Assembly (NCBI RefSeq): GCF_054482525.1
Contig: NZ_CM137006.1
DNA: 64,000 bases
Strand: one strand, 5' to 3'
Shown piece after piece: positions 22,001-25,000 of the stretch. Positions within the stretch are counted from its first letter, which is position 1. Each line of letters starts with the position of its first letter. Position numbers: made by a program.

Positions 22001-25000
22001 CAGGTTACGCAGTGAAACCGATCGCCGGTCGCTGTGGCAGCAATATCGACCTCGTCAGCCATCATGAAGAGGTGCTGGACAAAACCAGCGGTAAATTTGC
22101 CGAGCAGAAAAACATCTATCAGCAACTGTGGTGTTTGCCGAAAGTGGACGGTAAATACATTCAGGTATGTACCTTCACCGTTGGCGGCAACTACGGTGGG
22201 ACGTGTTTGCGCGGTGATGAATCACTGGTCATCAAAAAAGAGAGTGATATTGAACCGTTAATTGTGGTGAAAAAGTAATACATGTTGTAGCAACCCCGTA
22301 CTGATTATGAAGAATAATCAGTACGGGGATTAATCAAAATATTCAATATTTATATATTCCAATATTTATTCATTTCATATGTGAATATATTAACCAGTGG
22401 AATACCTGTGTTTTGATTATTTCTAAAGGTTTTGAATGAATGCTTATTGTCTGATACACAAGAAATAACACTCTTTTTATCGTTAAAAAATGATATTTCA
22501 CTTTGCCCATGCCGTTAAAGTCACTGATAATGCGTCCGTTCGTAAATTCAAAATGGCGTAATCTAATATATGCTAAATTTATTTGTTGGCCTTGATATAT
22601 ACACAGGGCTTTTGTTATTGCTTGCTCTGGCATTTGTGTTGTTCTACGAAGCAATCAATGGTTTTCATGACACGGCGAATGCGGTGGCAGCCGTTATTTA
22701 TACTCGTGCCATGCAACCACAACTTGCTGTGGTGATGGCGGCATTTTTTAACTTTTTTGGCGTGTTATTGGGCGGACTTAGCGTTGCCTATGCCATTGTC
22801 CATATGTTGCCAACCGATTTGTTGCTGAATATGGGGTCAACCCACGGCCTGGCGATGGTCTTTTCCATGCTGCTGGCGGCGATTATCTGGAACCTGGGAA
22901 CGTGGTTCTTCGGTTTACCGGCCTCCAGTTCGCACACCTTGATTGGTGCGATTATCGGCATCGGTTTAACCAACGCGCTGTTAACCGGCTCATCGGTGAT
23001 GGATGCGTTAAACCTGCGTGAAGTGACCAAAATTTTCTCCTCGCTGATTGTTTCCCCTATCGTCGGCCTGGTCATTGCGGGAGGCCTGATATTCCTGCTG
23101 CGACGTTACTGGAGCGGGACGAAAAAGCGTGACCGTATTCACCGCATTCCGGAAGATCGCAAAAAGAAAAAAGGCAAACGTAAACCGCCATTCTGGACGC
23201 GTATTGCGCTGATTGTTTCCGCTGCGGGCGTGGCGTTTTCGCACGGCGCGAACGACGGACAAAAAGGGATCGGCCTGGTAATGCTGGTACTGGTGGGGAT
23301 TGCCCCTGCTGGCTTCGTCGTCAATATGAATGCGTCCGGCTATGAAATTACCCGTACCCGCGATGCCGTTACCAACTTCGAACACTACCTGCAACAGCAT
23401 CCTGAACTGCCGCAGAAGTTGATTGCGATGGAACCTCCATTGCCTGCAGCATCGACTGATGGCACGCAAGTAACAGAGTTTCACTGTCATCCGGCAAATA
23501 CCTTTGATGCTATTGCGCGCGTTAAAACGATGCTGCCAGGCAATATGGAAAGTTACGAGCCGTTAAGCGTGAGTCAGCGCAGCCAGCTGCGCCGCATTAT
23601 GCTGTGCATCTCTGATACCTCCGCGAAGCTAGCGAAACTGCCAGGCGTCAGTAAAGAAGACCAGAACCTGCTGAAAAAACTTCGCAGCGATATGTTAAGC
23701 ACCATTGAGTACGCTCCGGTGTGGATCATCATGGCGGTAGCACTGGCGCTCGGCATTGGCACCATGATTGGCTGGCGTCGTGTAGCGATGACCATCGGTG
23801 AGAAGATTGGTAAGCGCGGCATGACGTATGCGCAAGGCATGGCGGCACAAATGACGGCGGCAGTGTCTATCGGTCTTGCCAGTTATATTGGGATGCCCGT
23901 CTCCACAACACACGTCCTCTCGTCTGCAGTTGCAGGGACGATGGTGGTGGACGGCGGTGGGTTACAGCGTAAAACGGTAACCAGCATCCTGATGGCGTGG
24001 GTATTTACTTTACCGGCGGCAATTTTTCTTTCTGGTGGGCTGTACTGGATAGCATTGCAGTTGATTTAACCTTCCTGAAAATGCCCGGTCCTGGCGATCG
24101 GGCATTTCCATTTTTGACTAGTGATAACCACGCGCGGTCATAAAATCCGTAATCGCTTTTTCTGCATCAACCAACACCTGTTCCAGTGGCTGATTGGCAT
24201 CGATATCAACCAGTTGTGCACCACCAAAGGTTAACTGTGGCGTTATGGCAATCTTCCTCGCCAGCGATTCCCGTTTATGGTCGGGTTTACGTGCACAGGC
24301 AACTTCAAGGTCAACATTGAGTTTGATGACCAGATCAGGCTTATGGCTCGCCATCCAGTGAAACGCTTTACGTTCCTGGCTTGCCAGCCATGAGACAAAA
24401 CGACCACCTTCAACGTTAGGTGGGAACACCGTACCATCGTAAGCGCCAGGAATTTGGTCCTGAGGATAACGGTCGGTTAGAACAATTAACCCGCGACGAC
24501 GACAGGCAAGCATATGACGAAAGCGCAGTAAGCGACGGGCGACAAACGCTGTAATTACCAGCGCCGGAACTGGTCCAGGCAATTTTTTTGCTGTTTTCAC
24601 CTGATTTCGTTCAATTGTTTTATGTAAGGATTTTCCCATCAACGGTAATTTTGTCACTGCACGACCGACATTTCCGGCCTGTTTTCCTAAATGAACTCTT
24701 TCGGCAGCACCATATTTTTCGACAACGGTAATAAGATGTTCACACACCGTTGACTTGCCTGAACCATCGCTACCAATAACGGCAATTAATGGAGGTGTTA
24801 TTGACTGCATGAATATATCCTTTAATTTAAATATCCATTAAAAATATTTATTTGGTTAATATGTTTTTATGAAAGCGTAATTCAGGTCAATGTCACAATT
24901 AACCATTGTCACAATAAGGTTGAACGGATATTCTGAGCACGGACCACGTAATATTCAATACATTATTTACTGCCGGGTTTTTCGTGAATCAACGTAATAT

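Follow-up and report, generated by a model that had tools for sequence, protein, structure and literature searches.

The DNA analysed is a 64-kb window (the whole stretch examined) of the E. coli chromosome, in which the gene for glutathionylspermidine synthetase/amidase, gss, is followed on the same strand by pitB. A 651-nt query across the junction of the two genes matched 5415 of 5426 complete E. coli genomes, and both encoded proteins are 100% identical to the K-12 and FT130 annotations. With the last base of gss at 22278 and the first of pitB at 22570, the span 22279-22569 is exactly the 291-nt gss-pitB intergenic region, just as the original prediction had placed it; in K-12 it corresponds to NC_000913.3 3136372-3136662 on the reverse strand. 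Expression of gss is moderate, at ~5000 normalised counts. Three ordinary parts make up the gap between the two genes: a 3' stem-loop that is conserved, a spacer at the junction and a promoter that arose by duplication (Table 1). The degree of conservation of each zone was assessed by aligning the region from nine sequences, namely seven diverse E. coli strains, Escherichia sp. MOD1-EC7003 and E. albertii.

Table 1. Features of the gss-pitB junction, with the conservation of the three zones of the intergenic region (coordinates are those of the window).
Feature	Position	Strand	Basis or remark	Mean identity, seven E. coli	Identity to E. albertii
gss CDS (glutathionylspermidine synthetase/amidase)	20419-22278	+	ORF list; K-12 and FT130 annotation; hairpin-bearing transcript		
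Linker from gss stop codon to hairpin, 15 nt	22279-22293	+	Sequence; invariant in 7/7 diverse E. coli		
gss 3' stem-loop, no U-tract	22294-22328	+	Arms 22294-22308 and 22314-22328, loop GAAGA 22309-22313	96%	66%, including a 12-nt insertion
A/T-rich spacer, GC 0.21, with 16-nt imperfect tandem repeat at 22344-22375	22329-22445	.	Least conserved zone	90.6%	60%
pitA-like block zone (comprising the next two features)	22446-22569			97%	90%
Conserved block 5' of the pitB promoter (GCTTATTGTCTGATACACAAGAAATAAC..., followed by T5/A6 tracts)	22446-22484	+	Candidate regulatory or UP-like region		
pitA-paralogous pitB promoter and 5' leader	22485-22569	+	Promoter-like site; alignment to pitA upstream region		
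pitB CDS	22570-24069	+	ORF list; K-12 and FT130 annotation		

By alignment, the last ~85 nt of the region and the pitA promoter region are paralogues. Local alignment of 22485-22561 with the sequence upstream of pitA gave a score of 85 against a shuffle maximum of 26, and the identity of pitB to pitA is ~82% over these 77 upstream nucleotides as compared with 75.7% (nucleotide) and 80.8% (amino acid) in the coding sequences. This paralogy accounts for the second match to the region that nearly all E. coli genomes give; the match inspected aligns over 22493-22561. The predicted pitB promoter, of the sigma-70/sigma-S type, comprises a -35 element TTGCCC (22503-22508) and a -10 element GATAAT (22526-22531) separated by 17 nt, with 9/12 matches and a predicted transcription start near 22538. 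The two hexamers and their spacing are identical to those of the pitA promoter, a conserved mini-ORF, ATGGCGTAA, which lies at 22553-22561 in the pitB leader, is common to both genes, and the hexamers are invariant across Escherichia. The promoter and leader of pitB would therefore represent a copy of those of pitA, which the original prediction had overlooked in the right-hand ~85 nt. The block immediately 5' of the promoter is highly conserved even in E. albertii, and its similarity to the pitA upstream region is weak; a predicted curvature peak near 22476 (approximate model) falls within it. In a published in vitro genomic SELEX screen, RNA polymerase carrying sigma-S gave a binding peak within the pitB/gsp spacer (PMC5493296). 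The 5' leader of pitB displayed no significant RNA structure (z = -1.05). Small ORFs on the + strand (23-30 aa) and one of 94 aa with a TTG start on the - strand, which a few genome annotations enter as hypothetical, overlap the promoter or the start of pitB and found no support.

The position of pitB was then considered against 80 loci fetched from other species, each of which encodes a relative of Gss. Among these, pitB follows gss in the two Escherichia loci only, and the genes 3' of gss vary from genus to genus, even between Citrobacter species. Nucleotide similarity of non-Escherichia sequences to the window ends at 22271-22279, at the gss stop codon, the hairpin described below being the one exception. 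PitB-type proteins of at least 88% identity carry solely Escherichia coli names where a source names them, and protein comparison with PitA of many genera identified no donor, since the PitA proteins of many genera are about equally distant (79-85% identity). Judged by gene order and protein distribution, pitB was added in Escherichia only, at a locus which is variable and starts right after the gss hairpin.

Between the hairpin and the pitA-like block lies a spacer of 117 nt with 21% GC. The original prediction had described a long A/T-rich stretch in front of pitB, and such a stretch is indeed present, the GC content falling to 0.245 over 22300-22499, which ranks within the lowest 0.4% of 200-bp windows and compares with 0.50 for the window as a whole. 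The length of 117 nt is retained in 8/9 Escherichia sequences (113 nt in F1022) and the GC content lies between 0.19 and 0.22 in 9/9, while AT-to-GC and GC-to-AT differences number 24 and 20, respectively, a balance which suggests that the composition is maintained. The A-tract periodicity ascribed to the same stretch fared less well. AA/TT or A/T-tract positions were analysed in the stretch originally singled out, in the spacer and in the whole region, and the Fourier power at 10-11.5 bp was matched or exceeded by 14-73% of dinucleotide shuffles. The repetition that is visible to the eye is an imperfect 16-nt tandem repeat, CAATATTTATATATTC / CAATATTTATTCATTT, and not helical phasing. A wedge model with approximate parameters gave only moderate curvature peaks, at ~22404 and ~22476, with values of ~31 degrees, at the 98th percentile of the window. 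The stretch proposed to provide curved DNA is not among these approximate peaks and its phasing is at chance level, and this part of the proposal was not sustained.

The accompanying suggestion that pitB is poorly expressed agrees with the literature, in which pitB is described as normally non-functional in the wild type (PMC6469041, citing Harris 2001 and Hoffer 2001). PhoB does not bind to pitB and has no regulatory effect on it (PMC10294691). Since the hexamers of pitB are those of pitA, context-dependent repression of pitB is a reasonable idea, and the A/T-rich spacer, with its conserved composition, is on these features a plausible candidate for silencing by nucleoid proteins. It is possible, if doubtful, that the spacer binds or nucleates H-NS-type proteins which silence the pitA-like promoter, an explanation that would be compatible with the one we favour below. 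The A/T content is of the H-NS type (GC 0.21-0.245, in the lowest 0.4% of the window), the spacer has kept its length and composition across Escherichia despite drift of its sequence, and hexamers identical to those of the constitutive pitA stand in front of a gene that is normally non-functional and that needs a repressor other than PhoB (PMC10294691). Moreover, a protein-occupancy domain that is transcriptionally silent and silences an inserted lac promoter, the 'pitB locus' tsEPOD, lies ~1 kb away (PMC4191405). Judging from the lac coordinates given in the same paper, however, the published limits of this domain (3131588-3133385) are U00096.2 coordinates, and it covers the 3' third of pitB, yghT and yghS, from ~23580 of the window onward, and is thus downstream of and outside 22279-22569. 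Against silencing from the spacer stand also the short length of the A/T-rich patch (~200 bp), the chance-level phasing of its A-tracts, without the helically phased curvature typical of H-NS targets, and the finding that, with up to 2 mismatches allowed, the high-affinity 10-mer of H-NS (TCGATAAATT-like consensus) does not occur in 22279-22569.

The spacer could alternatively be envisaged, again tentatively, as neutral filler that remained where the pitB-containing segment met the 3' end of gss, with an A/T-richness that derives solely from origin and mutation bias. It is the least conserved zone of the region and sits at the limit of shared gene order, the locus 3' of gss differs in every genus examined, and IS1 insertions are found here and nearby in some strains, all of which favour this view. 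What makes this explanation questionable is that the length of 117 nt and a GC content of 0.19-0.22 are kept even in E. albertii, where identity has dropped to 60%, and that the balanced base changes point to a composition that is maintained.

At the left end of the region stands the hairpin. The original prediction of a perfect hairpin directly after gss was correct as to its existence and its place, the stem starting 16 nt past the stop codon; only its length was understated, there being 15 perfect pairs around the 5-nt loop and not 14. It folds at about -26 kcal/mol, with z scores of -6.2 and -6.6 for the + and the - strand, respectively. It exceeds every other perfect stem-loop of the window in length, and a stem of at least 13 bp was obtained in 0/100 dinucleotide shuffles. 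The hairpin is unique in the window and is found at one place per genome (median 1) in 5402/5426 E. coli genomes; being single-copy, it was rejected as a repeated extragenic palindrome (REP/BIME and similar). A mobile-element or phage origin of the left part of the region was likewise discarded, as phage records gave no match, and the four matches in a plasmid collection were all E. coli sequence, 3/4 of them in chromosome-sized records. No annotated feature lay under the hairpin match in any record inspected, and an Rfam scan of 21800-23000 at a permissive threshold returned only sub-threshold chance matches, with no family at gathering score. The hairpin is thus an unannotated, conserved 3' stem-loop of gss, of a known kind.

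In nearly all of the 80 loci, a strong hairpin was predicted by folding at no more than some tens of nucleotides past the gss stop codon, and many of these hairpins are textbook terminators. Given that nearly every enterobacterial gss has a strong hairpin in this position, it is well founded to assign the hairpin a part in ending or delimiting the gss mRNA. The original prediction went further and suggested that the hairpin insulates pitB from gss read-through. Of this, the assignment of a 3' RNA element to gss stands, whereas that of a canonical terminator does not. The stem is stable, contains G/C pairs and lies just past the gss stop, as in intrinsic terminators, but the tract of 7-8 uridines that should follow directly is absent. 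The tail, ATTAATCA, holds 3 T in 8 and was not called by a terminator scan that needs at least 5 T in 8 after the stem. Two other Escherichia tails were no better (AATAATCA, and AGCATGTC in E. albertii), and in Escherichia the hairpin has no upstream A-tract. The hairpin is not a canonical intrinsic terminator. The gss hairpin of C. werkmanii, to which that of Escherichia is apparently homologous on alignment, has a T-rich tail (TTATTTGA) and was called terminator-like. Only 1/3 of the homologous Citrobacter hairpins passes the simple terminator rule, and the ancestral gss hairpin tail may already have been U-poor.

It is unlikely, in our estimation, that the hairpin alone acts as a working Rho-independent terminator which insulates pitB from gss transcription. 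Such a function would fit the very stable stem with a G/C clamp at its base right after the stop codon, the U at 2 of the first 3 tail bases, the canonical terminators found at the corresponding position in most gss orthologues, and the moderate expression of gss (~5000 normalised counts) next to a pitB that is reported as non-functional in the wild type. However, intrinsic termination in E. coli is strongly dependent on a U-tract (established knowledge, summarised in PMC6061677), and neither the uncalled E. coli tail nor the sequence that follows the stem in E. albertii provides one. Insulation of pitB by the hairpin alone is therefore doubtful.

The hairpins of three Citrobacter genomes (L005, L008 and L009) start with CCCCGT or CCCCTGT, end with CGGGG and align in register with that of E. 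coli, which allowed the level at which the structure is conserved to be assessed. In this alignment, in which three Citrobacter sequences only provide the covariation and which was made automatically against a structure derived from the E. coli sequence, 96.2% of cells are paired on the + strand, as compared with 32-54% when the 3' partners were slid by 1-3 columns. Five pairs have changed on both sides, for example from A-U to G-C, and the observed pairing or covariation was reached by 0/500 shuffles. Pairing on the + strand includes 16 G·U cells, which would be mismatches on the - strand, where 84.8% of cells are paired with 1 G·U. Within Escherichia, 3/4 stem substitutions yield U·G on the + strand, and in E. 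coli strain F1022 a pair of the + strand is lost through a substitution that would be a wobble on the - strand. Compensatory changes, together with G·U pairs tolerated on the + strand only, indicate that the hairpin is conserved as RNA of the gss transcript. By this pattern of substitution it is an RNA structure and neither a DNA palindrome nor an operator. That the palindrome works as DNA, by serving as an operator for a protein or by forming a cruciform, could be read into a perfect 15-bp inverted repeat that folds equally well on either strand, but is highly improbable given that the G·U cells are tolerated solely on the + strand and pairing drops on the other, that a palindrome or dimeric operator would not accept such asymmetric changes, and that the hairpin is not a repeated element. 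A LexA-type or other operator was rejected by eye (the CTG-N15-CAG spacing is wrong) as well as by the strand-asymmetric G·U pattern.

The same Citrobacter genomes bear on the ownership of the hairpin. None of the three has any similarity to the window downstream of it, which indicates that the hairpin goes with gss. Among themselves, L005 shares nothing with L008 and L009 downstream of gss, and L008 and L009 share the first ~130 nt only. On these comparisons the hairpin travels with gss and not with pitB, and the stem-loop in the gss mRNA would descend from a 3' hairpin that is still seen in some Citrobacter.

Dar and Sorek (2018) found that E. coli mRNAs terminated by Rho have, at their steady-state 3' ends, stable stem-loops that lack a uridine tract and shield the mRNA from PNPase and RNase II (PMC6061677). 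The gss hairpin shares with this class its stability, its place at the end of a coding sequence, the absence of a U-rich tail and the conservation of its structure at the RNA level on the sense strand. By analogy, the class of U-less 3' stem-loops of Rho-terminated mRNAs is most likely the one that it fits best, with a protective, Rho-linked role. As it lacks a U-tract, the hairpin most likely serves to mark the 3' end of the gss mRNA and to protect it against 3'-5' exonucleases. Release of RNA polymerase would be at best weak at the hairpin itself and would depend mainly on Rho acting on the A/U-rich, untranslated RNA that follows. In that RNA, C and G number 11 and 9 in the first 100 nt and 28 and 23 in 200 nt, and with no clear excess of C over G the base composition gives no evident sign of a Rho loading site. 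The spacer, which is fast-drifting and confined to Escherichia, would keep the gss and pitB transcription units apart and may be a site to which nucleoid proteins are drawn. Taken as a whole, the reading of the junction as a U-less gss 3' stem-loop, followed by an A/T-rich spacer and a pitB promoter copied from pitA, is in our view probably correct.

A bolder interpretation may be put forward, although we think it improbable. In this, the gss hairpin is a terminator caught in the course of switching type, and hairpin and spacer together form a conditional barrier, dependent on Rho and H-NS, that keeps a pitA-grade promoter cryptic. Dar and Sorek have proposed that terminator types are easily switched by altered uridine content (PMC6061677), and the pair of stem-loops that would illustrate such a switch is the one with a T-rich tail in C. 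werkmanii and the one with a U-less tail in Escherichia, beside the pitB-containing segment. If true, the barrier could couple pitB to gss transcription when the activity of Rho or of H-NS falls. For our preferred reading of stem-loop, spacer and copied promoter, the significance extends little beyond annotation, to which it adds a conserved gss 3' stem-loop that had gone unannotated and the likely derivation of the pitB promoter from pitA. The locus nevertheless offers a convenient test case for how a U-less hairpin and A/T-rich untranslated RNA stop transcription, and for why pitB is cryptic despite hexamers identical to those of the constitutive pitA.

In comparison with known systems, the gss 3' end resembles the class of Dar and Sorek (PMC6061677) in its stable stem-loop after the coding sequence, the lack of a uridine-rich tract and the presence of untranslated RNA downstream on which Rho could act; it differs in that the RNA downstream of gss has no evident enrichment of C over G. 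With the canonical terminators that follow gss in Enterobacter, Lelliottia, several Citrobacter and others, the Escherichia hairpin shares position, stem length, stability and G/C clamp, but it has neither their U-tract nor their upstream A-tract. The gss-pitB region is similar to H-NS-bound or silenced A/T-rich DNA in being extremely A/T-rich and in neighbouring a tsEPOD that silences a reporter. In contrast to such DNA, it is only ~200 bp long, lies outside the tsEPOD and is devoid of a high-affinity motif and of A-tract phasing. Finally, the pitB promoter matches the pitA promoter region at ~82% identity over 77 nt, with the same hexamers, spacing and ATGGCGTAA, and differs from it further upstream by a 22-nt indel and by an A/T-rich spacer in the place where pitA has the yhiN divergent region. 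The two also differ in reported activity, pitA being constitutive and pitB normally silent.

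Across Enterobacterales, gene order breaks at the 3' end of gss. In the 80 fetched loci encoding Gss relatives, the genes downstream of gss were unrelated between genera, and even between Citrobacter species. PitB-type proteins (at least 88% identity) carried, where named, only Escherichia coli names, and PitA proteins from many genera were all 79-85% identical to PitB.

The window was found to be collinear with K-12 and strain FT130 up to 25116, where collinearity ends and yghS is interrupted by an IS1 copy (25117-25885). Strain SLK172 has an IS1 insertion between gss and pitB, and strain 2017.13.01CC has one within pitB; the gss-pitB-yghS neighbourhood is therefore a recurrent IS1 target.

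The transcriptionally silent protein-occupancy domain (tsEPOD) named 'pitB locus' by Bryant et al. (2014), at K-12 U00096.2 3131588-3133385, corresponds to approximately 23580-25116 in the window, covering the 3'-terminal third of pitB together with yghT and yghS. Inside this domain lies the divergent region between yghT and yghS (24682-25028), which is A/T-rich, with GC falling to 0.285; the gss-pitB spacer, as mapped onto the window, lies outside it. Five other strongly A/T-rich blocks, bigger than the spacer and with 200-bp GC as low as 0.21, occur elsewhere in the window; if any DNA here was acquired horizontally and is silenced in the H-NS manner, these blocks are likelier candidates than the spacer.

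The window has three further perfect stem-loops of 11-12 bp, against approximately 0.1 per window in shuffles, and at least two look terminator-like, e.g. AAGCCGGATGAT...ATCATCCGGCTT.

Features elsewhere in the window
Feature	Position	Strand
Perfect stem-loop, 11-12 bp	8412-8440	
Perfect stem-loop, 11-12 bp	12219-12244	
Perfect stem-loop, 11-12 bp	39854-39884	
InsB-like ORF of IS1 copy	25132-25635	-
InsA-like ORF of IS1 copy	25554-25829	-
A/T-rich block	28808-29339	
A/T-rich block	39830-40401	
A/T-rich block	56904-57728	
A/T-rich block	59078-60842	
A/T-rich block	61883-63550	

No obvious Shine-Dalgarno sequence precedes pitB or pitA. At 22553-22561, 8 nt upstream of the pitB start codon, stands a mini-ORF of three codons (ATG GCG TAA), without variation across Escherichia; it may represent a translational coupling or leader element, and is kept in the K-12 pitA leader (1028-1036 of locus L083, which carries the pitA upstream region).
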